Virus record (IMG/VR): IMGVR_UViG_3300045988_025432
Coordinates: 1-33,013 of that record
Length of the DNA: 33,013 nt
Source of the DNA: a virus
Strand: one strand, 5' to 3'
In this document: one piece after another, positions 489 to 32,645 of the stretch
Layout of the letters: each line of letters begins with the position of its first letter
How positions within the stretch are numbered: the stretch's first letter is position 1
Translations under genes and position numbers: made by a program
Notes under the pieces: model-generated
What the model was told of the DNA's origin: nothing
What the model saw: only the letters and a program-made list of their open reading frames with translations
Databases searched by the model: none

Positions 489-641
489 ATGATGACAGGT
501 TATGGAGGTGAAACAATAATAGATGCAAGAATTTTCGAAGCTTTAGGCTTACTTGAAAAGAAAGGCTATGAGCTATCTGAATTCGATAAAGGGTATATCG
601 CTTGTATCCTTAACGAATCCAAAAAAGAAGAAAAGAGGTGA
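489..641 (+). CDS. Small hypothetical protein (50 aa from the first ATG; the frame is open from 435)
   Basis: ATG ATG at 489-494, stop TGA 639-641, fills an otherwise empty gap. The frame is open upstream to 435 with coding-looking sequence but no canonical start, so the true start is unclear. Confidence 0.25.
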   Translation: MMTGYGGETIIDARIFEALGLLEKKGYELSEFDKGYIACILNESKKEEKR

Positions 642-3828: not shown

Positions 3829-4500
3829 ATAGCAGAACTAAAGAAATCGTATTACGCAATAATACCTGCAGAAGTTCGATATGATGAAGAATTGCCACCA
3901 AACGCAAAACTATTGTATGGAGAAATTACATCATTGTGTAATGAAAAAGGATATTGTTGGGCAACAAATCAATATTTCGCAGATTTATATAAAGTTTCTA
4001 AAATTACAGTAAGTAGATGGATTAGCATTCTAAACAAAAAAGGATATATTGCCGTAGAAACACTGTATAAAGAAGGAACAAAAGAAATTATCGGAAGGCA
4101 TTTATATATTGTAAATACCCCTATTAACAAAAATGTTAAAGATAATAATAAAGTTATTAATACTAAAATTAATAATAAATTAAAAGTAAGTAAACATAAA
4201 TACGGAGAATATCAACACGTTCTATTAACAGATAAAGAACACACACAACTATTAGATTTATATGGTGATTCATTAGATGAGCATATAAAGATATTAGATG
4301 AGTATATTGAAACGAGTGGAAAGAAATACAAGAACTATTCACTAGTAATTCAGAAGTGGGTACATGATGAATGGACTAAAAGAAATAAAGATAAGCCTAT
4401 CACACTTGATTCAAAGTTTTATGCAGAGCAAAACACAAAAACAGATAAAGAAGTACAGGATGAATTTAATAGGCTTAGAGCACAACTGTTTGGTGCATAA
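3829..4500 (+). CDS. Phage replication protein / replisome organizer (N-terminal winged-helix), predicted ATA start
   Basis: AKLLYGEITSLCNEKGYCWATNQYFADLYKVSKITVSRWISILNKKGYI is the typical HTH replication-organizer N-domain. GGAGG 3816-3820 overlaps the track's GTG 3820 and lies 8 nt before in-frame ATA 3829 (context AATAGCA). Confidence 0.6.
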   Translation: MAELKKSYYAIIPAEVRYDEELPPNAKLLYGEITSLCNEKGYCWATNQYFADLYKVSKITVSRWISILNKKGYIAVETLYKEGTKEIIGRHLYIVNTPINKNVKDNNKVINTKINNKLKVSKHKYGEYQHVLLTDKEHTQLLDLYGDSLDEHIKILDEYIETSGKKYKNYSLVIQKWVHDEWTKRNKDKPITLDSKFYAEQNTKTDKEVQDEFNRLRAQLFGA

Positions 4501-6756: not shown

Positions 6757-7052
6757 AAGATAAAGAATTGAAAAAAAACTTAGAAAAGGGAAGAAAAAAG
6801 CAAAGAGAAGATGCTATAAAAATAAATACTTTTATCAGATTAGATAAAAGCAGTGCTTCTGAAATCGATAAACAAATTGAGCAAACTTATTTATCTTTGC
6901 AAAAGAATATTAAATTTGTCTGTACTAATAAAGACTTGATGAACAGTATGCTAGATGAATTAGACTATATTGTTTACGCATCGAAACTATATGGTGGAAA
7001 GCATGTTATGGAAGAATTAGATAATCGTTACAAAAATAAATTAATGAGTTAA
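6753..7052 (+). CDS. Hypothetical protein
   Basis: ATG after a GAGGAGGATGA SD; no family recognised. Confidence 0.5.
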   Translation: MKDKELKKNLEKGRKKQREDAIKINTFIRLDKSSASEIDKQIEQTYLSLQKNIKFVCTNKDLMNSMLDELDYIVYASKLYGGKHVMEELDNRYKNKLMS

Positions 7053-7065
7053 AAGGAGAATGAAA

Positions 7066-7548
7066 ATGATTAATGTAGCAGTAATAGCAGGACATCTAAC
7101 TAAAGATGTTGAACTATCAAAAACGCAAAATGGAAATAGCGTAGCAAAGTTTACAGTAGCAGTAAATGGATACAATGACACTACAGATTTTATTAATTGC
7201 GTAGCATGGAATAAATTAGCAGATATCGTAAATATGTATTGTAAGAAAGGTGATTTAGTTACAGTCGAAGGAAGAATTAGTGTTAGAAATTATGAGAATC
7301 AACAAGGGCAGAAAGTGTATATCACTGAGGTGGTAGCTAGTAACGTACAATTACCGCCTAAAAACGCTTCTAATGGGCAGAATTACAATTCTAATGTAAA
7401 TACATATCAACAACCTAATCAAGTGAATAACAACACTTACGGCGTTCAAAATACATATACGCAACCTAGTTTGACACAACAAATTGCACAACAAGAATAT
7501 AGCAATGGAAGTGATTTAGATATTGCTTCAGATGATTTACCATTCTAG
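7066..7548 (+). CDS. ssb: Single-stranded DNA-binding protein
   Basis: OB-fold pattern MINVAVIAGHLTKDVEL..FTVAV..DFINCVAWNKLADIV..KKGDLVTVEGRI..R.YENQQGQKVYITEVVA, a Q/N-rich linker, and the acidic tail DDLPF typical of bacterial and phage SSB. Confidence 0.9.
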   Translation: MINVAVIAGHLTKDVELSKTQNGNSVAKFTVAVNGYNDTTDFINCVAWNKLADIVNMYCKKGDLVTVEGRISVRNYENQQGQKVYITEVVASNVQLPPKNASNGQNYNSNVNTYQQPNQVNNNTYGVQNTYTQPSLTQQIAQQEYSNGSDLDIASDDLPF

Positions 7549-7560
7549 GAGGTGGCTTCA

Positions 7561-7755
7561 ATAGAAATGAATTATGAAGAAAGGATTAAAGAGTTAATTT
7601 CTAAAAACAATAGACTAGGAAGGAAGAATATTGAATTGGAGCAGACTTTAAAAGAAAGAAACGCAACAATTCATACTCAAGCTAAAGAAATCAAGAAATT
7701 AAGAAGTGAAGTTGGCGAATTAAAGGATAGATTGTATAAGGTATACAGTTCATGA
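7561..7755 (+). CDS. Small coiled-coil protein, predicted ATA start
   Basis: GGAGG 7548-7552 overlaps the track's GTG 7552. In-frame ATA 7561 (context TCAATAGAA) is 8 nt downstream; the next ATG (7567) is 14 nt away. Confidence 0.5.
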   Translation: MEMNYEERIKELISKNNRLGRKNIELEQTLKERNATIHTQAKEIKKLRSEVGELKDRLYKVYSS

Positions 7756-8078
7756 GCACATATGAAGATATTAAGAGACACTTCTTGTGTGAATGCCAAT
7801 CGTACACATATTATGAGCAAAAGATAGCAGAGCTACAAAGGGATGAAGCAATTTATCCTTTAAAAGCCGAGCTATTCTTAGCTCATGCAGATTATGCAAG
7901 AAGAATGAACTATGTAAAAGACAAATTAAGCCAACTTGATGATACAACTCGAGCCATGATTGAGTATAGATATATAAAGGGATTCAGTGCAGAAAAAACA
8001 TCTAATATTGTAGGTTATGCACGAGAAGAGATTCCAAGAAAAATAAATAAGAACTTAAAGAAAGTGCTCACATTGTGA
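7752..8078 (+). CDS. ArpU/RinA-like late transcriptional regulator (sigma-70 region-4-type HTH)
   Basis: ATGA overlap start. C-terminal RAMIEYRYIKGFSAEKTSNIVGYAREEIPRKINKNLKKV is a sigma region-4-like HTH. It sits at the early/late boundary ahead of the packaging genes. Confidence 0.5.
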   Translation: MSTYEDIKRHFLCECQSYTYYEQKIAELQRDEAIYPLKAELFLAHADYARRMNYVKDKLSQLDDTTRAMIEYRYIKGFSAEKTSNIVGYAREEIPRKINKNLKKVLTL

Positions 8079-8087
8079 GCATTTTTT
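8065..8087 (+). terminator. Rho-independent terminator
   Basis: TGCTCAC (8065-8071) pairs with GTGAGCA (8075-8081), 3-nt loop, then TTTTTT 8082-8087. The stop codon of the upstream gene lies inside the stem. Confidence 0.65.
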
Positions 8088-8089
8088 CA

Positions 8090-8098
8090 TGTAATAAT
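8090..8098 (+). promoter_or_regulatory. Extended -10 promoter (TGtAATAAT) for the tRNA gene
   Basis: TG-n-AATAAT ends 7 nt before tRNA position 1 (8105), so the transcript could start at or next to the mature 5' end. Confidence 0.4.
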
Positions 8099-8104
8099 TG
8101 TTTT

Positions 8105-8180
8105 AGCAGGATAGAGCAGTAGTAGCTCACTAGTCTTATTAGCTAGAGGTCGAATGGTGCAAATCCTTCTCCTGCAACCA
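8105..8180 (+). tRNA. Initiator-like tRNA with anticodon UAU (decodes AUA), encoded CCA
   Basis: Hand-folded cloverleaf. Acceptor AGCAGGA/TCCTGCA: A1xA72 mismatch, then 6 Watson-Crick pairs including G2:C71 and C3:G70. T8 A9. D stem GAGC/GCTC (A11:T24), D loop AGTAGTA. Anticodon stem CTAGT/GCTAG, loop CTTATTA (anticodon TAT 8137-8139, T at position 37). Variable loop AGGTC. T arm GAA(T)GG/CCTTC with one bulged T, T loop TGCAAAT. A73 plus CCA. Blocks GAGCAG, GTAGCTC, AGGTCG, CAAATCC and GCAACCA match E. coli and B. subtilis tRNA-fMet as I recall them. Atypical points: no GG in the D loop, G at position 55, pyrimidine at 37, and only one of the three initiator G:C pairs in the anticodon stem. 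Confidence 0.7.
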
Positions 8181-8262
8181 TGTTTACAAAGCCTATGAGC
8201 AAGTCCTTTCCGAATTAGATATTAAATACCAACAATTGCATACAATTAGGCTTTGATATATT

Positions 8263-8287
8263 ACCGAGCGTTTGTCTCGGTTCTTTT
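8263..8287 (+). terminator. Rho-independent terminator downstream of the tRNA
   Basis: ACCGAG (8263-8268) pairs with CTCGGT (8276-8281), 7-nt loop, T-rich tail TTCTTTT. Confidence 0.5.
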
Positions 8288-8305
8288 AATAATAAGGAGG
8301 AGAAT

Positions 8306-8557
8306 ATGGGTTCAAAAGAATTTCAAGAATTAGCAATGAAAGCAGTATTTCAAGTAAACCCAAATATTGCAATCAGTGAAATGTTCGTTGTGGTGATGTT
8401 TAAAGTGCTTCAAAACAATAAAGCATTCATTAGTGCTAAGAGCACAGATAACTATTACGAAGTAACGTATAACGGCGATAAAAAGGAATTATACGTTGAT
8501 GAATACATCAAGAATACAAATACTTGTCTAAATGTAGATGGCGCTCTATGGTTTTAA
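8306..8557 (+). CDS. Conserved small phage protein of unknown function
   Basis: ATG after an AAGGAGGAG SD. The VLQNNKAFIS....DNYYEVTYNGDKKELYVDEY pattern recurs in Firmicute phages as I recall; no function known. Confidence 0.5.
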   Translation: MGSKEFQELAMKAVFQVNPNIAISEMFVVVMFKVLQNNKAFISAKSTDNYYEVTYNGDKKELYVDEYIKNTNTCLNVDGALWF

Positions 8558-8571
8558 AAAAGGGGGATAAA

Positions 8572-9044
8572 ATGGAGATTATTAGATTAAAAATCAATGA
8601 CATTACACCTTACGAAAAGAACGCAAAGATTCATACTGAAGCACAAATTGAACAAATTAAGAAATCTATTCAAGAATTCGGCATGAATGACCCAATCGCA
8701 GTATGGGGGGGAACAATACCATAGTTGAAGGACATGGGCGATTAGAAGCCTTAAAGCAATTAGGCTATACAGAAGTTGACTGTATCAGACTAGACCATTT
8801 AACAGATGAAGAAAGAAAAGCTTATACACTTGCTCACAATAAAATCAATATGAATACAGGATTCGACATTGATTTATTGGATGAAGAATTAGACAGTATA
8901 GAAGATATTGATATGGAAGATTTCGGATTTGAAAGCGTAGAAAATATTGATTTGAATAGTTTTTTTGAAGATTCAAATTCAACAAGTGAAAAAGAACCGA
9001 AAAAAATTCAGTGTCCTCATTGTGGTGAATGGTTTGAACAATGA
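8572..9044 (+). CDS. ParB-like nuclease-domain protein with C-terminal zinc ribbon, split by a frameshift in a G7 tract (8705-8711)
   Basis: ATG 8572 after AAGGGGGA. IRLKINDITPYEKNAKIHTEAQIEQIKKSIQEFGMNDPIAVW continues as GGNNTIVEGHGRLEALKQLGYTEVDCIRLDHLTDEERKAYTLAHN only in the -1 frame (track ORFs 8524-8724 and 8703-9044). One extra G would restore a single ORF. Ends with CPHCGEWF. Confidence 0.65.
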
Positions 9045-9101
9045 AACTGTTTTTAGCAGGATGTCTTTCGGGGGGGGCACAAAACATAGTGCGTAAGAAT
9101 T

Positions 9102-9299
9102 ATGAAATTGTATCTAGCAGGAGGACAAGCACAACGAAAGACGGCTATCCCTAAAGTAGGAGAAGATATGAAAATGTATTTAGCGTCTGTTTCGAGACTT
9201 GAAACAGATTTAAAAGCAGAGAGTGGAGGATTAATGAAAGCATATCTAGCAGAGAGTGGAGGATTAATCTTCAATGACGCTAACATATTGCAATCATTC
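9102..9299 (+). repeat. Three 66-nt-phased copies of the dpdA 5' end (ATGAAA-NNN-TAT-YTA-GC..), plus a 20-nt exact direct repeat 33 nt apart
   Basis: ATGAAATTGTATCTAGC at 9102, ATGAAAATGTATTTAGC at 9168, ATGAAAGCATATCTAGC at 9234, all in one frame (MKLYLAGG / MKMYLAS / MKAYLAESGG). GCAGAGAGTGGAGGATTAAT occurs at 9216-9235 and 9249-9268. A perfect 8-bp hairpin TCTGTTTC/GAAACAGA lies at 9186-9208. Confidence 0.8.
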
Positions 9300-9947
9300 T
9301 ATTATGTGGATGACTTCACTCGAAATATAATCATCCCAAATTGTAAGGATTTCTTATTAGATAGTGGAGCATTTACATTTATACAGAATGCGAAACACGT
9401 TGATTGGGATGAATATGTAGAAAAATATGCAAAATTTGTTAGAGAAAACAAGATTCAGAAATATTTTGAATTAGATATTGATTCAATCGTTGGATTAAAA
9501 GAAGTAGAACGATTAAGAACGAAACTAGAAAGATTAGTTGGTTGGCAATGTATTCCTGTATGGCACAGAAGCAGAGGAATGGATTATTTTATAAAGCAGT
9601 GTGAAGAATACCCTTATATAGCAATCGGTGGAATCGCAATCAAAGAAATAAAGCAAAATGAATATCCTATCTTTAAAGTGTTGATAAAAGAAGCACATAA
9701 AAGAAATACAAAGGTACACGGCTTAGGTTTCACACAATTAAAGAAACTGAAAATGTATAACTTTGATTCTGTAGATAGTTCATCATGGGTTAGTGGCAAT
9801 AGATTCGGTGCTATATATTGGTTTAACGGAGAAACTTTAGAAAAGATAAATAAACCAAAAGGAAAACGAGTGAAGAGTTCACAAACTGCTATAAATAACT
9901 TTATACAGTGGAAGAAATTCGCTAATTATGTAGAAAGGACATATTAA
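9168..9947 (+). CDS. dpdA: DpdA-type (TGT-like) DNA 7-deazaguanine transglycosylase
   Basis: NILQSFYY..FLLDSGAFTFIQN (TGT-type DSG catalytic Asp motif), IAIGGIA, and FDSVDSSSW fit phage/bacterial DpdA. The start is ambiguous: ATG 9168 has the best SD (TAGGAG, 6 nt), ATG 9234 gives the minimal conserved protein, and ATG 9102 has no SD. Confidence 0.65.
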   Translation: MKMYLASVSRLETDLKAESGGLMKAYLAESGGLIFNDANILQSFYYVDDFTRNIIIPNCKDFLLDSGAFTFIQNAKHVDWDEYVEKYAKFVRENKIQKYFELDIDSIVGLKEVERLRTKLERLVGWQCIPVWHRSRGMDYFIKQCEEYPYIAIGGIAIKEIKQNEYPIFKVLIKEAHKRNTKVHGLGFTQLKKLKMYNFDSVDSSSWVSGNRFGAIYWFNGETLEKINKPKGKRVKSSQTAINNFIQWKKFANYVERTY

Positions 9948-10250
9948 ATGATTGAGAATAAAGAAAAAGTAAAATATATCGAAATGTATCCAAAGGCAAG
10001 ATGTTTCTGCCCTATTGGCAAAGCATGGTACACGAATAGATTTAAAGTATCAGTATTCCCTAGAGATTGTTATTTCGATTATCTAGATGTAGAGAAATTT
10101 ATTAAAGAAGAAATTGAAGGAAAAAGCTTAACAATTGAAGGAGCTTGTAAGAAGTTATATGACTATTTGAAAAAAGATGTTGAAGATATTCAAGTAGAAT
10201 CACACGTAAATGACGCAATTCACTTTCCTGTAAAGGTATTAATTGATTAA
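9948..10250 (+). CDS. Small T-fold protein, possibly QueF-like (preQ0 reductase-like)
   Basis: CFCPIGKAWYTNRFKVSVFPRDCYFDYLDVEKFIKEE aligns by eye with B. subtilis QueF [37 protein letters not shown] (from memory). It lies between dpdA and queT. It is shorter than canonical QueF. Confidence 0.35.
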   Translation: MIENKEKVKYIEMYPKARCFCPIGKAWYTNRFKVSVFPRDCYFDYLDVEKFIKEEIEGKSLTIEGACKKLYDYLKKDVEDIQVESHVNDAIHFPVKVLID

Positions 10251-10722
10251 TGAGGAAGCATTAATAAAGAATCAAACAATTAAGACAATTTCAATGAATG
10301 CAATCGTATGTGCAATGTATGTTGCATTATGTGTAGCACTAAATCCAATTAGCTTTGGAGCATTACAATTTAGAGTAGCAACTCTATTGTTACCATTAGG
10401 ATTTCAAGATAAGAGATTTGCAAATGGAATTATTCTAGGTGTAATCTTAGCAAACTTAACAAGTTCACTAGGATTAATTGATGTATTGGTTGGATTTACA
10501 ATTCAATTTACAATGTATTATTTATTCCCATATTTTATTAAGAATAAATGGATTCATGGAATTGCTTATGCAGTATTAAGTGGAACGCTAGTAGCATTAG
10601 AATTATTATCAGTATTACACATCCCATTCTTATATTCATTTATTACAGTAGGATTAAGTGGACTAATCTTATATGAAGTAGGGAATGTATTATGTACAAG
10701 ATTATTGAAATACATTGATTAA
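10243..10722 (+). CDS. queT: QueT-family queuosine-precursor transporter (ECF S-component-like membrane protein)
   Basis: About 150-160 aa, all hydrophobic helices. NAIVCAMYVALCVALNPISFGALQFRVATLLLPL matches the QueT signature (..aAlYv.lt..p.sfg.iQfRvsE.l). The start is ambiguous: TTG 10243, in-frame ATA 10264 (7 nt after GAGGA), or ATG 10294. Confidence 0.6.
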   Translation: MINEEALIKNQTIKTISMNAIVCAMYVALCVALNPISFGALQFRVATLLLPLGFQDKRFANGIILGVILANLTSSLGLIDVLVGFTIQFTMYYLFPYFIKNKWIHGIAYAVLSGTLVALELLSVLHIPFLYSFITVGLSGLILYEVGNVLCTRLLKYID

Positions 10723-12427: not shown

Positions 12428-13831
12428 ATAGAAACATCTAACACACGTAGACCGTGGTTTCAGAATTACCTAAACGATAGAGGGTATTATGTAGACACAA
12501 ACGCAATTGAAATTATTGAATTGTGCAACAAGTGGTACACGAATACCGAAACAGAATTTCATACGGCATACACCTTGAATAACGAGGAATACACGCTAGA
12601 TAAAACAGACTTTGCAAAGCGTTTATGTGAGGATGACGCAAACCTAATTGAAATCCTAGATATAAACGCTACAGAGGATAGCGTTACAAATGACATTATT
12701 TCAGACATTCTAACAAAGAATAGATTTGATGTAATGTACAGAAAACAGGTTGAGCAAATGTCTGCAAATGGTACTGTAGGAGCTTATGTAACGGTATCAA
12801 ATGCCGAGATTTATGAAGATGGTACATTCAGTGGAGGAGAAATCAGAATCAATTATTGTGATTCAATGAATATCCTTCCATTAACTGTTATAAATGATGA
12901 AATTGTGGAAGTTGCTTTCGTTGGAGTAAATTATGAGAAACTAAAGAAAGTATATGTGATGGTCATGTTCTTAAAAGGACAAGACGAAAGATATATTGCA
13001 GAAACACATTACTTCAAAGACACAGGCGAGGAAATAAAAGAACGTGCTCAGATTGTTCAACTAGATGTAGTTAAACCCTTTGCAATTATGAGAAATGCAA
13101 AGGTAAACAACTTACAAATGCAAGGGTACGGCTTACCTAAAATTTGGAGTGCAATCGCTCCTTTAAAGACAATTGACCTAACAATGACAATGTGGAATCG
13201 AGATTTATTGAAGTCAGATAAAATCGTTCTTGTGAATGAAGCATTAATGCAGAAAGACGAGAATGGAAAGATTAAGATGAATCCACAAATGAAAAAGATT
13301 TTTGTTCAGTTAGGTAGAGACAAGTTACCGGAAGAAAAAGCTTTATGGCAAGAATACAATCCAACAGTTAGAACACAAGAAGTTGTTCAATCACTAGAAA
13401 CTGCTTTAAGCATCTTATCAATGATGTTTGGATTCGGCACAAAGAAATACACGTTTGAAAGTGGAAGAATTGTGACGGCTACAGAATACATTGGTGAGAA
13501 TCAAGACGCAATGAAGGAAGTAAACTCACAACGTAAAGAATCTACGGCTTATATTCAAGATATCATTCAAGCAATAGCATACTTCTATGAATTAACACAA
13601 GGCAGAAAGCTTAATATCAATTCATTAGATATTGCAATTGATTATGATGATACATATATAGAGGATAAGCAAAGCACTGCACAAGCGTTAAGAAATGACG
13701 CACTTACATTTGATATTCCAAGATTGAAAATTATGTACTTTATGAAACAATACGGATTTACAGAAGAAGAAGCAACGGAATTATTAAACGAAGAAATTCA
13801 AGATGATGGAGAGGGGGATGACGAAGAATAG
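12428..13831 (+). CDS. Portal protein (SPP1 gp6-like), predicted ATA start
   Basis: Size and position fit a portal. The frame opens at 12425, right after the terL stop. The 31 codons before the track's TTG 12521 read as coding (ETSNTRRPWFQNYLNDRGYYVDTNAIEIIE) and contain no ATG/GTG/TTG. AAGGAGG 12415-12421 lies 6 nt before ATA 12428. Confidence 0.8.
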   Translation: METSNTRRPWFQNYLNDRGYYVDTNAIEIIELCNKWYTNTETEFHTAYTLNNEEYTLDKTDFAKRLCEDDANLIEILDINATEDSVTNDIISDILTKNRFDVMYRKQVEQMSANGTVGAYVTVSNAEIYEDGTFSGGEIRINYCDSMNILPLTVINDEIVEVAFVGVNYEKLKKVYVMVMFLKGQDERYIAETHYFKDTGEEIKERAQIVQLDVVKPFAIMRNAKVNNLQMQGYGLPKIWSAIAPLKTIDLTMTMWNRDLLKSDKIVLVNEALMQKDENGKIKMNPQMKKIFVQLGRDKLPEEKALWQEYNPTVRTQEVVQSLETALSILSMMFGFGTKKYTFESGRIVTATEYIGENQDAMKEVNSQRKESTAYIQDIIQAIAYFYELTQGRKLNINSLDIAIDYDDTYIEDKQSTAQALRNDALTFDIPRLKIMYFMKQYGFTEEEATELLNEEIQDDGEGDDEE

Positions 13832-20270: not shown

Positions 20271-21140
20271 ATAGCGAATGAAATTGCATTAGCTAAAACG
20301 TATGTTTCAAATCTTGATGAGGTATATAAATTAGCTTCAGTAACGGGTGATTTAAATGCAGACGCTACAATGGTACGAGCCGGAGCAAACGCAAAAGAAA
20401 TTATCTATCCACAAATTTCTGTTAAAGGTTTAGGAAACTACGATAGAAATAGCGGATATACATCAAACTCAGTCAAATTGGAATGGAAGACTGCTACATT
20501 TGATTACGATAGAGGAACAAAAATTGCAGTAGATACACAAGACAATGCAGAATCAATGAATATTGCGTTCGGTAGAGCAGGAGCAGAATTAATGCGTACA
20601 AAGGTAGCACCGGAAGCAGACGCTTACACGTTCGCTAAAATTGCCGGTACAACAGGAATCACAAAAGTTTCAGAAGATTACGCAAGTGCGGAAGAATTTT
20701 TGAGTGCATTATTAAAAGCCGTTACTCAAATGGATGAGGATGAAGTTCCTAGTGAACAACGTATCTTGTATGCTACGCCTACATTATTAAATGGAGTCAA
20801 GGCATTAGATACTTACAAATCACGTGAAGCTTTACAAGGATTCGCAAAGGTAGTTCCTGTACCTGCTAGTCGTTTCTATACAAAGATTAAATTGTTGAGT
20901 GGAGCAGATACAGAAGCAGAAGGTGGATATACTAAAGCAGAGGATGGGCACGTTATCAACTTCTTGATTGTTCATAAACCTTCTGTTATGAAATGGGATA
21001 AACACACTGTTTCAAATGTGATTCCTGCAAGCAATAACATTGAATCAGATTCAGATGTATTGAAATATCGTAAATATGGAATCGTTGATGTATACGCAAA
21101 TAAGGTGGCAGGTATCTACTTATCTGCTAGTGCGAAGTAA
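20271..21140 (+). CDS. Major capsid protein, predicted ATA start
   Basis: Position after the scaffold gene, and NYDRNSGY..DYDRGTKIAVDTQDNAESMNIAFGRAGAELMRTKVAPEADA is capsid-like. The frame opens at 20268. The 33 codons ((M)ANEIALAKTYVSNLDEVYKLASVTGDLNADAT) before ATG 20370 contain no canonical start. AAGGAGG 20256-20262 lies 8 nt before ATA 20271. Confidence 0.8.
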   Translation: MANEIALAKTYVSNLDEVYKLASVTGDLNADATMVRAGANAKEIIYPQISVKGLGNYDRNSGYTSNSVKLEWKTATFDYDRGTKIAVDTQDNAESMNIAFGRAGAELMRTKVAPEADAYTFAKIAGTTGITKVSEDYASAEEFLSALLKAVTQMDEDEVPSEQRILYATPTLLNGVKALDTYKSREALQGFAKVVPVPASRFYTKIKLLSGADTEAEGGYTKAEDGHVINFLIVHKPSVMKWDKHTVSNVIPASNNIESDSDVLKYRKYGIVDVYANKVAGIYLSASAK

Positions 21141-21642: not shown

Positions 21643-22058
21643 TAGGATTTTTTGAAGATTCAATCACACTTGTAAATCACTACTATGATACATTGACGAG
21701 AGAAGATAGGTTTCAAGCTTCTATCCTTGATAAATGTATGTGGAGACAATCAACTGTTAGAACTGCAAACGGTAATATTCTGAGCATAGCCACATCCACA
21801 AATATTACCATTCTATATCGTGAAGGATATGTTGAACCTTACGCATATGCAAAGCTTTCAAATGATGAGAAGCAAAAACATTTCACATTGAATACAGATA
21901 AAACAGATTTCGTATTCTTTGGAGAAGTGAAAGAAGATTTATCCACAATTAAAGCAATAAACGAAGCTAAAAAGAAATACAAATGGACAACGATTCAAAG
22001 CGTAACAGATTGTACGAATGTAGATATGTTGAAGCATTGGGAGGTTGTCGGTCAATAG
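21639..22058 (+). CDS. Head closure/stopper-type protein (assigned by position)
   Basis: ATG 21639 in an ATGA overlap with the upstream stop. Synteny-based call. Confidence 0.45.
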   Translation: MIGFFEDSITLVNHYYDTLTREDRFQASILDKCMWRQSTVRTANGNILSIATSTNITILYREGYVEPYAYAKLSNDEKQKHFTLNTDKTDFVFFGEVKEDLSTIKAINEAKKKYKWTTIQSVTDCTNVDMLKHWEVVGQ

Positions 22059-22417
22059 GTATCAAAGTTAAGCTTGATGTTAAATCACTTCAAGAATTTA
22101 AACAATCAAGAGGACTTGAAGAACGTGGACGAGTTCAACAAATGATTGATTCTGAAGTCATTAGGCTTATGACCCCCTATACGCCTAGAGACACCGGAGC
22201 ATTAATTAACTCTGCTACACGATTAACACAAATTGGTAGTGGATTAGTAAAGCAAGGTGGACCAAGTGCACCTTATGCAAGACGTTGGTATTACAACAAA
22301 GAGAATGCTCATTTTGTAGGTGGTAAAACAGACCATTGGTTTGAAAAAGCTATGCGAAATGGTGGAGAAGAAGCAATCTTGAAAAAAGCACAACAAATGA
22401 TAGGAGACGGAGAATGA
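22055..22417 (+). CDS. HK97 gp10-like head-tail joining protein, predicted ATA start
   Basis: MTPYTPRDTGALINS and APYARRWYYN fit the HK97 gp10 family pattern. ATA 22055 overlaps the upstream stop (ATAG) 10 nt after GGGAGG. The alternative ATG 21983 would need a 76-nt overlap and has no SD. Confidence 0.55.
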   Translation: MGIKVKLDVKSLQEFKQSRGLEERGRVQQMIDSEVIRLMTPYTPRDTGALINSATRLTQIGSGLVKQGGPSAPYARRWYYNKENAHFVGGKTDHWFEKAMRNGGEEAILKKAQQMIGDGE

Positions 22418-22833
22418 CAGTATCAAAAGCATTAATCCAATGGTTATATGGCTATGGAAATATACAGATAGATGAACGTATTGAAACGGATGTTTTAGCG
22501 CAACAGGCTATCTCTTATGCGTTGTATAAAGAACCTAACGCAATTGTAGATACATACATTGACGGCTCTCAAATGCGTACTGAATATTACACGTTTCTAG
22601 CTCGTAGGAATACACAAATTGAAACCGAAAGGCAAGACAACAATTCTTTCTTAGAAGAATTAGGAGAATGGATTGACGAAAAGAATTTAAACGGAGAATT
22701 ACCACAACTAGACGGAAACAGATATTGTGAGGATGTTTCCGTTTCAAGTGGCTTATATCTATACACAAATGAGGATAGTCAAGCAGTATATGCCTTGACT
22801 ATTCAAATCAAATACAGAAAGGAGCTTAATTAA
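22414..22833 (+). CDS. Tail completion/terminator-type protein (assigned by position)
   Basis: ATGA overlap start; directly precedes the major tail gene. Confidence 0.45.
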   Translation: MTVSKALIQWLYGYGNIQIDERIETDVLAQQAISYALYKEPNAIVDTYIDGSQMRTEYYTFLARRNTQIETERQDNNSFLEELGEWIDEKNLNGELPQLDGNRYCEDVSVSSGLYLYTNEDSQAVYALTIQIKYRKELN

Positions 22834-23339
22834 TAGCAACTCAAGGGACCGAAGTAAGTACAGGACAGACAGTCAAGAAGTATATGATTGGATTGTTCTT
22901 AGAAATGGGAACAGGTTATAAGCGAATTAAGAAGTCTACAACTTTAGATATTTCATTTAACAGTGAAACTGAAACTTATGATTTTATCGCAGATAAGAAC
23001 CCAACAGAATCATTGAAAAGTTATTCACCTCAGATTTCGCAAGATTTAACAATGATTAAAGGTGAAGATGATTTTGAATATATTTATGAACAAATGATGA
23101 AATCCGTTCCTAACAATGAAGAAGTAAATACAAAATCTTTAATTGTATTCATGTTTGACGGAGATAAAACAAAAGGCTATAAAGCGTGGGAAGTTGACTC
23201 TAAATTAATCTTTGACACATTGAGTGGCGTTGATTCAAAAATCAACTTTAACATTAACTTTGCAAGCGATATTCGTGTTGGTATTGCAAAGGTAGCAGAT
23301 GGAACAGTGACATTCACAGAAGGTACATCAGAAGTATAA
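22833..23339 (+). CDS. Major tail (tube) protein, predicted ATA start
   Basis: Position upstream of the chaperone pair and tape measure gene. The frame opens at 22830. ATA 22833 (context TTAATTAATAGCA, the same as the capsid start) lies 8 nt after AAGGAG. The first ATG (22884) has no SD. Confidence 0.65.
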   Translation: MATQGTEVSTGQTVKKYMIGLFLEMGTGYKRIKKSTTLDISFNSETETYDFIADKNPTESLKSYSPQISQDLTMIKGEDDFEYIYEQMMKSVPNNEEVNTKSLIVFMFDGDKTKGYKAWEVDSKLIFDTLSGVDSKINFNINFASDIRVGIAKVADGTVTFTEGTSEV

Positions 23340-24300: not shown

Positions 24301-26880
24301 ATATCAGATGGAACATTAAAGTTTGAAACAAAGATAGATACAAGTGGTCTAGAGAATGGTATTAAATCTGTAAAGGTTGTATCAAGTGAAGCCACAAATG
24401 CTATTAAAGAAACTTCAAAAGCGATTGATAAGCTAGGTTCTGATGGTTCAAAAGCACCACCAAAGATTAAAGATAAACTTAAAGATTTAAACGAAGAGCA
24501 AAAGAATACACAGACAGAAACGCAAGAAACAGGTTCTAAATTTGATGTATTTAAGCAAGTAGGTAACAGTGCATTAGAATCAATTCAAGGTGGATTTGAT
24601 GGACTATTAGGAAAGATTCAGAATATTAGTCCGGAAGCTAGTGCAATCACTGAAACCTTAACAGGATTAGGCGTAGGAGGTGTTGTTGGTGTTACTGCCG
24701 TAGCCGGAGCTATTGGTGGAATGGCACTAGCAATTAAAACAGGTGTTAATCAAGCTATTGAATTAGATGACGCTATGGCTAAATTCCAAGCTCAGACAGG
24801 TGCTTCAAGTAATGAAATGAGCAAATTTAAAAACATTGCTCGTGATGTTTGGTCTAATAATTTCGGTGAAGATGTTTCAGATGTTGCCGATATGATGGGC
24901 AGAGTCAAGCAACAAATGCAAGGCATAAGTGATGTTGATTTAAAGGATGTTACTGAGGATTTATTGACATTAAGAGACACATTCGGAATGGACGAGAACG
25001 AAACATTAAGAGGTGCTCAACAATTAATGAAGCAGTTCGGAATTAGTTCTAAAGAAGCTTTTGACCTTATGGCTACAGGTGCTCAGAATGGTTTAAACAA
25101 ATCAGATGAGTTAGGCGACAACATTTCAGAATACTCCGGTAAATTCAAGCAAGCAGGATATTCGGCAGAAGAATACTTCCAATTAATGCAGAATGGATTA
25201 GATGGTGGAGCTTATAACCTTGATAAAGTAAATGACGCAATCAACGAAGTTACCACAAGGTTAGTCGATGGAACTATTGAAGGAGCTTTAGATAGTTTTG
25301 ATACCAAGACGCAAGATGTCTTTAAAGCTTGGCAAGAAGGAAGAGCAACTCAGAAAGATGTTGTGAATGCGATTGTTGAGGATATTTCTAAGACAACAAA
25401 TGAGCAAGAAAAGTTGAATAAATCGGCAACGGCTTTCGGTACAATGGGAGAAGATTTCAACGCCGGATTCATTCAGTCCTTAACGACAGTAGGGAATAAA
25501 TATAAAGATGTAGAAGGGGCAATGGATAAAGTCAAAGAAATTGCAAATGGTGGCTTAAAGAACGCTTTAAGTGGCTTAGGGCGTGCATTTCTTGATTCAT
25601 TTACTCCAATAGGCGAACTTATTACCCCTATTCTTGCAGGTATCATTGGATTGATTACAGTAGCTATACAAGGTATTCAACAAGGATTTGCTAAAGTTGG
25701 TGATGTAATTTCAAGTGTATTAAGTAAGATTGATACAAGTGGAATTACAGAATTAACAAGTCAAGTTTCCGAAGTGTTAGCACCTTCCTTTGATAAAGTA
25801 AAAGACGCAATCGACAAAATGAAAGTTGCACTTGAACCTATTGCAAAAGATATATTAAGCAAGATTATTGATGTAATTCAAAACATTGTGAATCAAGCTC
25901 AAAAGATTTTAACAGTGGTAGGTCCACCGATACTTTCTGTTTTAAAGAAAATCATTTCAACGGTTTCGGAATTTATGCCTTTAATCACATCTATATTGAC
26001 TATTGTCGGAAGTGTTGTAAGTGGAGTTATTTCATTTATAAATATGGTAGTCACATATACCGGAACGGCAATCGCAACGGCAATGGGATTTATCATGCCT
26101 ATTGTTCAAATCATAGCTACAATCGTAGCGAATATTTGGTCTGTAATATTAACGGTTGCTCAGAATATTTGGAGCAAAGTTAGCGAAGTAGTTACTGCCA
26201 TTATTGGATTCGTAAGCAATTTGTTTAAAACAGTTTCGGACATCATAAACAATATTTGGAGCAAGATTCAAGACGCAATGAATAGAGTCGGCGATAAGGT
26301 AAAAGGTGTTATTGATAATATCAATAAATATTTCAATAATGTTAAGAGTACTGTTTCTGATGTATTCAATGGCATTTGGTCTAAGGTCCAAGGTGTGATG
26401 GACAATGTAGGAAATAAAATTTCAAATGTTCTACAAGGAATACAGAATTCATGGAGCGGTTTAAAAGGATTTGTAAGTGGTGTATTTGGTGGAATTGAAG
26501 GAGCAGTTAGTTCATTAGTTGGAAGTGTAAAAGGAATGGTAAATGGTGTTATCGGTGGTATTAACGGTGCAATCGGTATCATTAATAAAATCCCGGGAGT
26601 TCACATTGGAAGGATTCCAAGACTAGAGCGTGGCGGTGTATTGAAGCGTGGTCAAATCGGTTTATTAGAAGGTAATGGAGCAGAAGCAGTCGTACCATTA
26701 GAAAAAAATAAAGCGTGGATTCGTGCCGTAGCTAAAGATATGGTCCAAATCATGCCTAGTGTAACAACAAATAACAACGGACAGACTATCAACTTCTACA
26801 ATAAAGTTCAAAGTCCGGATGAAATCGCTAGAATGTTACGTATGCAAGCAAGATATGGATATGGAGGTGTAGTTCAATAG
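24301..26880 (+). CDS. Tape measure protein, predicted ATA start
   Basis: Length, a Gly/Ala/Val-rich TM-like core, and repeated NIWSK motifs. The frame opens exactly at ATA 24301 (preceded by TGA). The next 140 codons ((M)SDGTLKFETKIDTSGLENGIK.., a typical TMP N-terminus) contain no in-frame ATG/GTG/TTG. The AAGGAGGTGG SD is 8-11 nt upstream. Confidence 0.85.
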   Translation: MSDGTLKFETKIDTSGLENGIKSVKVVSSEATNAIKETSKAIDKLGSDGSKAPPKIKDKLKDLNEEQKNTQTETQETGSKFDVFKQVGNSALESIQGGFDGLLGKIQNISPEASAITETLTGLGVGGVVGVTAVAGAIGGMALAIKTGVNQAIELDDAMAKFQAQTGASSNEMSKFKNIARDVWSNNFGEDVSDVADMMGRVKQQMQGISDVDLKDVTEDLLTLRDTFGMDENETLRGAQQLMKQFGISSKEAFDLMATGAQNGLNKSDELGDNISEYSGKFKQAGYSAEEYFQLMQNGLDGGAYNLDKVNDAINEVTTRLVDGTIEGALDSFDTKTQDVFKAWQEGRATQKDVVNAIVEDISKTTNEQEKLNKSATAFGTMGEDFNAGFIQSLTTVGNKYKDVEGAMDKVKEIANGGLKNALSGLGRAFLDSFTPIGELITPILAGIIGLITVAIQGIQQGFAKVGDVISSVLSKIDTSGITELTSQVSEVLAPSFDKVKDAIDKMKVALEPIAKDILSKIIDVIQNIVNQAQKILTVVGPPILSVLKKIISTVSEFMPLITSILTIVGSVVSGVISFINMVVTYTGTAIATAMGFIMPIVQIIATIVANIWSVILTVAQNIWSKVSEVVTAIIGFVSNLFKTVSDIINNIWSKIQDAMNRVGDKVKGVIDNINKYFNNVKSTVSDVFNGIWSKVQGVMDNVGNKISNVLQGIQNSWSGLKGFVSGVFGGIEGAVSSLVGSVKGMVNGVIGGINGAIGIINKIPGVHIGRIPRLERGGVLKRGQIGLLEGNGAEAVVPLEKNKAWIRAVAKDMVQIMPSVTTNNNGQTINFYNKVQSPDEIARMLRMQARYGYGGVVQ

Positions 26881-27746
26881 ATATCAATAAAGTAAGAGTT
26901 ATTGTCCGTAGGGATGATGGCAAAGAATTTGAAATTGATAACAAAAGATGGAGAATACCGTCTAGTGATGGCTTAGATGGATTTGATTATGTAGCACCTT
27001 CATATACTACCCAAGACAATGCATTCGGAAATGGTGCTAGATTAATTGGTTCACGTATTCCAACGAAAGAAAGAAGCGTGAAAGCTACCTTTAAAGGCTC
27101 GCTAGAAGAAAAAAGAGAAGAAAGGGAGAAGCTACGGCGCTTCTTCCAATATTCTCATATATTTGATGTGATAGTTGAGTACATGGGAGAAAAGAAATAT
27201 TGTAGAGGTCGTTTATATGCGTATAGCTTGCCTACAGTTAACATCTACAAAGATTTAGAGCTTAACTTTACAATTCTATGCACACAACCTTTATTGCTTT
27301 CATTTGATGATTTTGCAAGGAATATCGCAGAAATTGGTGAAGGTTTAGCGTTCAACTTTGAAATACCGGAGACAGGTGTAAACTTTGGAACATTTACATT
27401 CGCTAGAGAAATCTATATTGATAATCAAGGTGATACAGAAACATACTGTAGAGCCGTTATTGAAGCGTTTGGAGAAGTAACGAATCCAAAACTATTTAAC
27501 AAGGATAAATATATTCGTGTATTAGATACACTACACAATGGTGATGTATTAGAAATTGATTTAGTTTCTGAGCCTATTTCGATTAAAAAGAATGGTGTGA
27601 ATTGTATCGGCAAAGTTGACAGAACCTCATCATTCAATGATATGACGATTCAGTTAGGTGAGAATATCATAGGATATACGGCAGACAATGGAGATACGAA
27701 TCTAGCTTGCACGGTTTATTACAATGAAAGGTATTTAGGTTTATAG
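26877..27746 (+). CDS. Distal tail protein (Dit-like), predicted ATA start
   Basis: Follows the TMP gene. 67 coding-looking codons ((M)DINKVRVIVRRDDGKEFEIDNKRWRIPSSDGLDGFD..) precede the track's GTG 27078 with no canonical start. ATA 26877 overlaps the TMP stop (ATAG) 9 nt after GGAGG. Confidence 0.7.
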   Translation: MDINKVRVIVRRDDGKEFEIDNKRWRIPSSDGLDGFDYVAPSYTTQDNAFGNGARLIGSRIPTKERSVKATFKGSLEEKREEREKLRRFFQYSHIFDVIVEYMGEKKYCRGRLYAYSLPTVNIYKDLELNFTILCTQPLLLSFDDFARNIAEIGEGLAFNFEIPETGVNFGTFTFAREIYIDNQGDTETYCRAVIEAFGEVTNPKLFNKDKYIRVLDTLHNGDVLEIDLVSEPISIKKNGVNCIGKVDRTSSFNDMTIQLGENIIGYTADNGDTNLACTVYYNERYLGL

Positions 27747-28773: not shown

Positions 28774-29274
28774 ATAGAAAAGAAAAATGGAGGATTTAAA
28801 CAAATAGCAAGAAGTATGTTTTTTCTAGATAAGATTAATGCAATGTGTGGTGTTGCCGTAGCCGTATTAACATACGTATTAGGTGAACATTGGTATTTAT
28901 TCGCATTCTTCTTATTTATGAATGTAGTGGATTATATTACAGGGTGCATGAAATCGGCGATTAATCACAAAATCAATAGCAATAAAGGATGGATTGGAGT
29001 CCTTAAAAAGCTAGGCTATTGGATTATGATTGTAGTTGCGTTCACATTCAGTGCATTCTTGGTTGAGATTGGAAAAATGCTAGGAATTGATTTCCATGTA
29101 TCTACATTGTTAGGTTGGTTTGTGTTAGCTTCGCTATGTATTAATGAATCTCGTAGTGTTATGGAGAATTTATTACAATGTGGTTACAATGTACCAAAAG
29201 CATTAACTAAAGGTTTGGAAGTAGCGGATAAAATCGTTAACGAAGACAATGACGAATCAAGTACCTTGGAATAA
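28774..29274 (+). CDS. Holin (phage_holin_4-type), predicted ATA start
   Basis: Several TM helices plus GWIGVLKKLGYW and the INESRSVMENL motif typical of this holin family. AGGAG 28761-28765 overlaps the track's GTG 28765 and lies 8 nt before in-frame ATA 28774 (context TTAATAGAA). Confidence 0.7.
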   Translation: MEKKNGGFKQIARSMFFLDKINAMCGVAVAVLTYVLGEHWYLFAFFLFMNVVDYITGCMKSAINHKINSNKGWIGVLKKLGYWIMIVVAFTFSAFLVEIGKMLGIDFHVSTLLGWFVLASLCINESRSVMENLLQCGYNVPKALTKGLEVADKIVNEDNDESSTLE

Positions 29275-31883: not shown

Positions 31884-32645
31884 ATAGATTATCAAAGCTT
31901 TAAAAAAGCCGTATTAGGCAAAGCATTCGATTTAGACCATGCATATGGTGCTCAGTGTTGGGATGGAGGCATGAAATATTTAATCGATTTAGGCTACAAA
32001 GCTATCCATTGTACAACAACTGGCTATGTAAAAGATATTTGGAATAATCGAAAGACAAATGGAATTTTAAACTATTGTAATGAGGTCTCAATTATGCAAC
32101 CTGGTGACATTGCAGTATTCAAGGAAGTAGCAGGATGGACACCGTATTCACACATTGCGATTTTCGATTCAGACATTGATGGTAAGTTCGGTTGGTTCTT
32201 AGGACAGAACCAAGGTGGAAAAGGTGGAGCATTCAATTTAATTAAATTGCCTTATTATGCAACCTTTGATACTGCGTTTAGACCTAAATGTTTCGCAAAT
32301 ACAGGAGCAGTTAAACCAAGTATTCCACAACCTGTAGAAGCAATTGACCAAATCTTGCACGCAGGAAGCTACGTAACATCCGTACAAATGAAGATTGGCA
32401 ATCAAGGATTGAAACAAATCAATGGCGATTTATGCGCATACCTTGCACAATTAGGTGGTTGGTTTCCAATTCGTTTAGTCGACAAAGTTCGCTATTCTGA
32501 TGGATATAATGATAACGTATTGCATACAACAAATGCCGTTGTCTATGTTACAAGAATTCGTGTTGATGAAGTCAACGTACAAAAGAATCTTGCGAAAATC
32601 GGTGGAATTTGGGTAAATTGTGACCCATTAATTGAAGTAGCATAA
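31884..32645 (+). CDS. CHAP-domain endolysin with a C-terminal cell-wall-binding domain, predicted ATA start
   Basis: DLDHAYGAQCWDGG (catalytic Cys) and YSHIAIFDS (His) are CHAP motifs. AGGAGG 31871-31876 lies 7 nt before in-frame ATA 31884 (TTAATAGAT). The track's TTG 31860 lies inside the -10 hexamer and upstream of the SD. Confidence 0.8.
   Translation: MDYQSFKKAVLGKAFDLDHAYGAQCWDGGMKYLIDLGYKAIHCTTTGYVKDIWNNRKTNGILNYCNEVSIMQPGDIAVFKEVAGWTPYSHIAIFDSDIDGKFGWFLGQNQGGKGGAFNLIKLPYYATFDTAFRPKCFANTGAVKPSIPQPVEAIDQILHAGSYVTSVQMKIGNQGLKQINGDLCAYLAQLGGWFPIRLVDKVRYSDGYNDNVLHTTNAVVYVTRIRVDEVNVQKNLAKIGGIWVNCDPLIEVA

Follow-up and report, generated by a model that had tools for sequence, protein, structure and literature searches.

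The window analysed here is a stretch of 33,013 nucleotides (nt) of viral DNA (IMG/VR record IMGVR_UViG_3300045988_025432, positions 1 to 33,013) in which all genes lie on the + strand. It encodes a 76-nt tRNA that has the features of a bacterial initiator tRNA but carries the anticodon UAU in place of CAU, and in about 12 of its genes ATA is the sole start codon at Shine-Dalgarno (SD) spacing. The initial annotation had read the tRNA as a dedicated AUA-initiation tRNA. This idea is supported by ATA starts that are anchored through homology, by the co-occurrence of the tRNA with such starts and by the covariation of anticodon and start codon among related phages.
8105..8180, + strand: initiator-type tRNA gene with anticodon UAU, A1xA72 and encoded CCA (Rfam, ARAGORN -ps90, covariation, initiator model)

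The tRNA gene has the sequence AGCAGGAUAGAGCAGUAGUAGCUCACUAGUCUUAUUAGCUAGAGGUCGAAUGGUGCAAAUCCUUCUCCUGCAACCA. The initial annotation had placed it within 8088-8180; the gene itself occupies 8105-8180 on the + strand, and the additional 5' part is a promoter-like box. Its 76-nt cloverleaf was recovered by the Rfam covariance model and by ARAGORN. The Rfam tRNA model RF00005 matched positions 8105-8177 over its full length (1-71) with 48.8 bits (gathering score 29, E = 1.1e-7). ARAGORN called no tRNA anywhere in the window with default settings, and with the 90% threshold (-ps90) it found the same cloverleaf at exactly 8105-8180 as tRNA-Ile(tat), a label that follows from the anticodon alone. Every initiator feature named beforehand is present: in the acceptor stem A1xA72 is unpaired and followed by G2:C71 and C3:G70, the D stem contains A11:U24, the variable loop is AGGUC and the 3' end is GCA-ACCA with the discriminator A73. 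The blocks GAGCAG, GUAGCUC, AGGUCG, CAAAUCC and GCAACCA, described beforehand as identical to tRNA-fMet of E. coli and B. subtilis, are the same in E. coli metV when both are aligned. The anticodon loop CUUAUUA gives the anticodon UAU, as had been read, and places U at position 37. The departures from a canonical tRNA that had been pointed out exist as well. The D loop (AGUAGUA, 7 nt) is without the G18G19 of a canonical elbow, the T loop is UGCAAAU with G55 and not U54-U55-C56, the T stem has one bulged nucleotide, and the sole G:C pair of the anticodon stem is G30:C40 next to A29:U41 and U31.G39.

Start codons were counted within the first 25 codons of frames of at least 60 codons, 4-10 nt after an SD core of at least 5 nt. 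In the window this gave 23 ATG, 12 ATA and 1 GTG, the other counted codons being neighbours of these. The genes with a predicted ATA start are the following.
516..641, + strand: small open reading frame, ATA start (GGAGGT, 6-nt spacer); cluster of 4, all ATA; the weakest case
3829..4500, + strand: replication initiation protein, ATA start (GGAGGTG, 7-nt spacer, A at -1); PHROG replication initiator aligns from residue 4-6
7561..7755, + strand: coiled-coil protein of 64 amino acids (aa), ATA start (AGGAGGT, 7-nt spacer); ATA in 36/36 orthologues, spacer varies
10264..10722, + strand: QueT-like transporter (Pfam QueT), ATA start; at the exact codon 7 orthologues have ATG and 6 have ATA
12428..13831, + strand: portal protein, ATA start straight after the TerL stop codon (AGGAGGT, 5-nt spacer, A at -1); ATA in 49/49 orthologues
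20271..21140, + strand: major head protein, ATA start (AGGAGG, 8-nt spacer, A at -1); ATA in 42/42 orthologues, second codon varies
22055..22417, + strand: 120-aa head-tail protein, ATA start (GGAGGT, 9-nt spacer); ATA in 29/29 orthologues
22833..23339, + strand: 168-aa tail protein (phrog_3099), ATA start; at the same codon 9 orthologues have ATA and 1 has ATG
24301..26880, + strand: tape measure protein, ATA start (AAGGAGGTG, 9-10-nt spacer, A at -1); profiles align from residue 6
26877..27746, + strand: distal tail protein (Dit), ATA start (GGAGGT, 8-nt spacer); profile aligns from residue 20, first canonical codon (GTG) at residue 68
28774..29274, + strand: holin (Phage_holin_4_1), ATA start; profile searches
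31884..32645, + strand: endolysin, ATA start (AGGAGG, 7-nt spacer, A at -1); endolysin profiles align from residue 3

At several of these starts, homology places the N-terminus at the ATA codon. The major head protein (context aaAGGAGGattaatta-ATA) aligns with residues 2-288 to positions 2-294 of the 297 positions of phrog_422, and its first ATG lies 33 codons downstream. In the portal gene (context ttaAGGAGGTaagaa-ATA) the profile alignment begins at residue 22 and the first canonical codon, a TTG, follows at codon 32; the portal protein of locus L046, which is 43% identical to that of the window, has ATG at the equivalent position. The first ATG of the tape measure gene is codon 141 (140 codons downstream). 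The ATA of the replication initiation gene is kept in relatives with a different SD sequence. A less clean case is the gene of the 64-aa coiled-coil protein with an ATG two codons downstream. We also considered ATA as a chance neighbour of the real start, which holds for 16649/16652 (ATA ATA ATG) and not for the genes listed. In homologues, internal ATA codons align with I, V and L in the same way as ATT and ATC do; the genetic code is therefore unchanged, and a reassignment of ATA to methionine is excluded. In the holin gene, the ATA at 28774 is followed by a second SD-spaced ATA at 28804, ten codons on, and then by ATG at 28816. This layout may represent a dual-start holin/antiholin that uses both kinds of start codon. 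Standard gene callers miss ATA starts, and public gene calls shorten the portal, head, tape measure and Dit proteins. In the calls for L090-L099, which truncate or shift the ATA-start genes, the portal protein has 436, 418 or 411 aa compared with 467, and the head protein has 272-275 aa compared with 289.

About 75 loci of the same phage family were collected by a pattern search in viral contigs, a TerL search and a look-up of exact proteins. Prophage copies adjoin genes whose products are identical to proteins of Holdemanella (Erysipelotrichaceae), and one circularly permuted contig carries an integrase and a helix-turn-helix repressor; we therefore take the phage, as judged from these genes, to be a temperate Holdemanella phage of the human gut. 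Across about 50 related loci the SD-led starts comprised 565 ATG, 276 ATA, 28 GTG and 17 TTG (886 in total). Orthologous starts switch between ATG and ATA while the surrounding sequence stays the same, as in ataggaggaaaaaga-ATA/ATG-gctattgaa. When the starts of the window and of L048-L099 were grouped in clusters, the base at +4 was G in 17 of 28 ATA clusters versus 21 of 92 ATG clusters, and the second codons after ATA were mostly GCN, GAA or GGN. Within the family the tRNA(UAU) and ATA starts are always found together. The distant relative L024, whose TerL gene has about 66% nucleotide identity, repeats the pattern with a tRNA(UAU, U37) and ATA starts for TerS (X-AKGKYKEW) and for the portal protein. 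Fifty sister loci without a UAU tRNA, found via the L046 portal protein, contain 0-2 SD-near ATA codons per locus; all 8 inspected adjoin a real ATG, so that no true ATA start was seen among those inspected.

The connection between anticodon and start codon extends beyond the initial annotation, because related phages pair CCU with AGG and GCU with AGC. About 1.2 kb downstream of the portal gene, many sister phages encode an initiator-like tRNA. In these tRNAs the first pair is C1xA72 or C1xU72, the D arm is GAGCAG..AGCUC and the variable loop is AGGUC; the anticodon loops differ, namely AUCAUGU (CAU), UUCCUUG/U or CUCCUUA (CCU) and loops of 8 nt such as UUGCUUAG. Initiator-like tRNAs with CCU, labelled tRNA-Arg(cct) by ARAGORN, occur at L111-L118, L120, L123, L131, L140 and L147. 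The N-terminus of the tape measure protein, X-(A/S)DG(S/T)L(L/K)F(D/E)TK(L/I)DTSGL, aligns across the window and the sister phages; the codon for X always lies 6-10 nt after AAGGAGG and tracks the tRNA of the phage.
Tape measure start ATA: phage tRNA UAU (window)
Tape measure start AGG: phage tRNA CCU (L116:11155, L118:17465, L123:11482)
Tape measure start AGC: phage tRNA GCU in an 8-nt loop (L134, tRNA 12628-12702, start 17390)
Tape measure start ATG: phage tRNA CAU (L110)
Tape measure start GTG: 8-nt loop CACAUUCG containing CAU, ARAGORN 'catt' (L133)

At L120 and L131, the portal, head and minor-capsid genes also begin with AGG. The loci with a CCU tRNA have 13 AGG versus 52 ATG among their SD-led starts, compared with 2 versus 84 at loci without the tRNA. 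We regard the covariation of anticodon and start codon across lineages as the strongest argument that these tRNAs would act in initiation. Loops of 8 nt (UUGCUUAG, UUCGCUUA and CACAUUCG) were seen among L134, L121, L122, L127 and L133. Among the 117 initiator-like phage tRNAs listed, 110 have CAU, 3 GAC, 2 CCU, 1 CAC and 1 GUG; since 7 of these 117 are not CAU, reassigned initiators may be a recurrent minority. They include the loop UUGACUU at L157, L211 and L239, CUCACAA at L155 and CCU at L176 and L190, where the tRNA of L176 combines the acceptor stem of the window tRNA (A1xA72) with the anticodon CCU. For the GAC and CAC tRNAs no matching start codons were found. GTC or AGG starts near the GAC and CCU tRNAs of L157, L176, L190, L211 and L239 did not become apparent, as the tRNAs lie at the ends of their loci or SD signals are weak.

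A uridine at position 37 is very unusual in any tRNA. The base preceding the start codon is A in 26 of 28 ATA gene clusters compared with 47 of 92 ATG clusters (Fisher p = 4e-5), and both ATA clusters that lack it have an ATG two codons later. Position 37 of E. coli tRNA-fMet pairs with position -1 of the mRNA, and the A37U mutant favours A at -1 (PMC10018350). The match between U37 and A at -1 suggests a fourth base pair, so that A-AUA would pair with UAU-U37 over four bases. In the sister phages, CCU tRNAs with U37 go with A-AGG, at the tape measure starts of L116, L118 and L123 and at three starts of L131, while the sole CCU tRNA with A37 (L120) follows no rule of A at -1. A fourth pair would strengthen a codon-anticodon helix that consists otherwise of A and U only.

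A different account would take ATA as an attenuator that the host tRNA-fMet reads weakly with the help of a strong SD sequence, and the tRNA-like gene as a decoy or as a nuclease-resistant replacement of the initiator against a host toxin or anticodon nuclease. Some phage tRNAs are known to act against defences that target tRNA, and some lineages with a UAU tRNA have no ATA starts in the DNA examined. In S. aureus, AUA with an extended SD sequence yields 10-30% of the expression from AUG with the host initiator only (bioRxiv 10.1101/2025.06.19.660503). However, attenuation fits poorly with the use of ATA by the most abundant virion proteins, major head and tail, and does not account for an anticodon that is exactly complementary to the unusual start in three independent pairings, for the match of A at -1 with U37, or for the lack of ATA starts in the inspected sister phages without a UAU tRNA. 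We consider it unlikely.

Whether the tRNA belongs to the initiators or to the elongators was examined by comparison with reference tRNA genes of E. coli K-12, taken by coordinate. The window copy is 67% and a family variant 76% identical to the initiator metV, and both reach 46-55% identity with metT, ileX, ileV and alaV. A near-identity search with window positions 7000-10000 against 50,697 phage records gave no match, and a distant blastn search with the tRNA region returned only phage tRNA-Met genes. A covariance model for initiators was trained on 108 distinct initiator-like tRNA(CAU) genes of phages; the majority have a 1:72 mismatch (AxA in 9/108). With this model the E. coli initiators scored 95.3 bits, L093 80.0, L024 79.2 and the window copy 69.2, compared with 61.4 for metT/metU, 58.9 for ileV, 56.1 for alaV and 44.7 for ileX. 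The margin of the window copy over the elongators is modest (69.2 versus at most 61.4) and, because the training genes were picked by their D-arm and variable-loop motifs, the test is partly circular for those segments. The direction is consistent despite the modest margin, and we conclude from the sequence comparisons that the window tRNA is an initiator-type scaffold with a changed anticodon and, in line with the initial annotation, not an ordinary tRNA-Ile.

The tRNA could nevertheless be an elongator tRNA-Ile(UAU) that supplements the decoding of internal AUA and owes its resemblance to initiators to ancestry. The ARAGORN call tRNA-Ile(tat) agrees with this, internal AUA accounts for 13 per 1000 codons and 18% of the isoleucine codons, some bacteria such as Mycoplasma mobile and B. 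subtilis tilS suppressors have a tRNA-Ile(UAU), and the host family Erysipelotrichaceae is allied to the Mollicutes. Elongator tRNAs that read ANN codons have a paired 1:72 position, a pyrimidine11:purine24 pair and a purine at 37 (t6A37), whereas the window tRNA has A1xA72, A11:U24 and U37. The 1:72 mismatch, which disfavours EF-Tu, is conserved, and the window tRNA outscores every E. coli elongator on the initiator model. An elongator would also leave unexplained why about 30% of the starts are ATA, why A precedes them, and why the pairs CCU/AGG and GCU/AGC exist. We judge this reading improbable. The preferred initiator reading is consistent with the determinants of the formyltransferase, which are G2:C71, C3:G70 and the discriminator A73.

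The relatives of the tRNA show how strongly it is maintained. It lies exactly 27 nt after the upstream gene in 75/75 related loci that cover the site, and occurs in 11 sequence variants with the loop CUUAUUA invariant in all 11. The anticodon stem occurs either as CUAGU/GCUAG or as UCGGU/GCCGA, with compensatory changes at three pairs (27:43, 28:42 and 29:41). The bulged nucleotide of the T stem varies across the family (U, C, A or GA) and is absent in the variant L093, which has a canonical T arm (GGUUCAAUUCC) with the T loop UUCAAUU. L024 has C1xA72, a canonical T arm with the T loop UUCGAUU and again the loop CUUAUUA. When the 11 family variants, L024 and E. coli metV were aligned on the cloverleaf (13 sequences), 99.6% of the cells were paired compared with 37-55% for slid controls, and 9 pairs were changed on both sides, a number reached by 0 of 500 shuffles. 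G2:C71, C3:G70 and A73 are invariant in 13/13 sequences. A11:U24 is also invariant, where the compared E. coli elongators have C11:G24. At 1:72 every family variant has A1xA72, and L024 has C1xA72. In the anticodon stem G30:C40 never changes, 29:41 is an A:U pair in the window copy and a G:C pair in other variants, and 31:39 is U.G and in one variant C:G. The anticodon is UAU in the 11 variants and in L024, in place of the CAU of initiators.

An invariant loop, a covarying stem and a freely varying bulge indicate that the family tRNA is a maintained RNA and not decaying, so that the decaying gene offered as an option by the initial annotation falls away. A functionless pseudogene or attachment-site remnant, for which the non-canonical D and T loops, the failure of default ARAGORN and the unremarkable fold energy could be cited, is hardly credible for a tRNA that is nearly invariant in 75/75 loci, shows compensatory stem changes next to a free bulge, and whose bulged T arm with UGCAAAU recurs in the unrelated tRNA(CAU) of L229. 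A remnant of an attP/tRNA site was rejected, as both the integrase and the host junction are located past the lysis genes and on the side of the genome away from the tRNA. The tRNA(CAU, U37) at L229:6827-6898(-), and similarly those at L170 and L178, has a short D loop without GG, an extra T-stem nucleotide and UGCAAAU; this architecture of the D and T arms therefore recurs. On the strand examined, no SD-led starts were found at L229, L170 and L178. Initiator-like tRNA(UAU) genes that are unrelated to this family and have canonical T loops were seen in viral contigs (L002, L003, L004/L022, L017) and at L041-L045 (bacterial metagenome-assembled genomes, Roseobacter insulae), and the phages that carry such tRNAs span 29-64% GC. 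A scan of genome contigs with the initiator-like UAU pattern gave 5 unrelated tRNAs and no prophage of the window family.

From these comparisons we conclude that ATA works as a functional start and that the tRNA has the structure and the type of an initiator, with which ATA starts co-occur and covary. We propose that a phage initiator tRNA(UAU), with an anticodon shifted from CAU, initiates translation at SD-led A-AUA codons, and assign to this reading a probability of about 0.8. In the infected or induced Holdemanella cell the tRNA would be transcribed, probably from its own extended -10 promoter, and aminoacylated with isoleucine or methionine. The unpaired 1:72 position together with G2:C71, C3:G70 and A73 makes its formylation and its rejection by EF-Tu probable. 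The tRNA would enter the P site of the 30S subunit and pair with an AUA located 5-10 nt downstream of a strong SD sequence, where U37 probably forms the fourth pair with the preceding A. About a dozen genes, among them those of the replication initiator, portal, major head, tail, tape measure, Dit, holin, endolysin and QueT proteins, would become efficiently translatable, while the host initiator alone would translate them poorly. AUA would thus serve as a start codon private to the phage, and internal AUA would still be read as isoleucine. Expression, charging, formylation, use of the P site and a benefit to the phage are what we infer from the sequences. A possible benefit could be that translation of late, structural and lysis genes is licensed by the tRNA or tightly silenced in the lysogen. 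Alternatively, ATG might have drifted neutrally to ATA with dependence arising once the tRNA existed, and the frequent ATG/ATA polymorphism fits such drift.

Several observations weigh against the proposal. C34 is normally required by MetRS, and a tRNA with U37 cannot carry the t6A37 that assists IleRS in E. coli; charging of the tRNA is therefore uncertain. The output from AUA in S. aureus implies that ATA starts are not strictly dependent on a special tRNA. Three of the genes that start with ATA belong to the early region and are located upstream of the tRNA. Near the unrelated initiator-like tRNA(UAU) of L002, L003, L004 and L017, no clear case of an ATA start was seen in the short stretches examined. 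The non-canonical form of the window copy, without G18G19, with G55 and with a bulged T stem, counts against the proposal as well, and of the three G:C pairs characteristic for initiators (29:41, 30:40 and 31:39) the window copy has 1 and other variants have 2. The single sequence folds no better than shuffles (z = -0.96), and the structural case therefore rests on the comparison with relatives.

The tRNA gene is framed by putative signals for its transcription.
8065..8087, + strand: terminator-like hairpin TGCTCAC-ATT-GTGAGCA (7 bp, 8065-8081) followed by T6; closes the upstream sigma-like gene and is conserved in relatives
8090..8098, + strand: extended -10-like box TGtAATAAT with no -35 box; putative promoter, read from the sequence
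8263..8290, + strand: terminator-like hairpin (8263-8281) followed by TCTTTT, between the tRNA and the next gene

The position of the tRNA between two terminator-like sites and its extended -10 box, both described in the initial annotation, were thus found again. The box ends 6 nt ahead of A1 and is kept in nearly all relatives; a consensus promoter scan that required a -35 box did not report it at 8090-8098. TGtAATAAT would put the transcription start at or near A1, which might explain the purine at position 1 of the tRNA. The conserved 80-nt spacer between the tRNA and the downstream hairpin (8181-8262) holds TTGCAT..(15 nt)..TATATT, which may be a late promoter with a terminator right after it. 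Upstream of the tRNA lie early genes, SSB, the 64-aa ATA-start protein and a 108-aa protein. The description of the last as ArpU-like could not be established, since it resembles region 4 of sigma-70 weakly (E about 5e-4). Downstream follow DUF6275, a ParB-like nuclease, a DpdA-like transglycosylase, QueT, TerS, TerL and the morphogenesis and lysis genes. The four genes directly 3' of the tRNA (8306-10722), in which the DpdA-like guanine transglycosylase has a weak NCBIfam match and a strong PHROG match and QueT is a transporter, look like a module for 7-deazaguanine modification of DNA.

Initiation in bacteria is thought to rest on a single CAU initiator, with AUA and similar codons seen as weak near-cognate starts. 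A literature search found no natural initiator tRNA of phages or bacteria with a non-CAU anticodon and no phage-specific initiation at AUA or AGG, in agreement with the remark in the initial annotation that no example was known. As far as we can tell, the molecule would be a variant of the initiator tRNA, and for the logic of the system no natural precedent was found. We think it probable that phages have a family of initiator tRNAs in which the anticodon has been reassigned to a private start codon for key genes (UAU/AUA, CCU/AGG, GCU/AGC), often with pairing over four bases through U37 and A at -1. If so, this would be a natural, virus-encoded expansion of the initiation code, in which replication, capsid, tail and lysis genes are untranslatable without the tRNA of the phage. 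Phage gene control would gain a translational layer, and phage genes would depend on one another in a new way. The system would also be the first natural orthogonal initiation system known to us, after such systems had so far been laboratory constructs, and could offer synthetic biology ready-made orthogonal initiators, some of them pairing with four bases.

Compared with bacterial tRNA-fMet of the E. coli metZWV/metY type, the window tRNA shares the cloverleaf, the unpaired 1:72 position, G2:C71, C3:G70, A11:U24, G30:C40, AGGUC and A73-CCA. It differs in having UAU instead of CAU, U37 instead of A37 and A1xA72 instead of C1xA72, a U.G at 31:39 with 1-2 of the three G:C pairs across the family, a short D loop without GG, G55 and a bulged T stem, and in being encoded by a phage. 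With the elongator tRNA-Ile(UAU) of M. mobile and of the tilS suppressors it has the pairing of UAU with AUA in common, but these tRNAs have a paired 1:72 and a purine at 37 where the window tRNA has initiator features and U37. AUA starts are also used in animal mitochondria; there, one tRNA-Met(CAU) with f5C34 reads both AUG and AUA, whereas the window phage has a separate tRNA with a genomically encoded UAU. As in the phages that recode stop codons (Lak and crAss-like phages), a phage tRNA would alter the reading of a codon on which late structural and lysis genes depend. Stop-codon recoding concerns termination and elongation, with TAG or TGA as sense codons, while in the window phage initiation would be affected and internal ATA keeps its meaning. 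The closest parallel in logic are engineered initiators with a mutated anticodon, in which the changed anticodon creates an orthogonal start codon and genes that depend on it. RajBhandary and colleagues reportedly engineered such an amber initiator, tRNA-fMet(CUA). In 2024 the amber-initiator system was used for the design of phage biocontainment (bioRxiv 10.1101/2024.07.29.605542). In contrast to these laboratory constructs, the window tRNA is natural, conserved and apparently co-evolved with a dozen genes, and it seems to add a fourth pair between U37 and A at -1.

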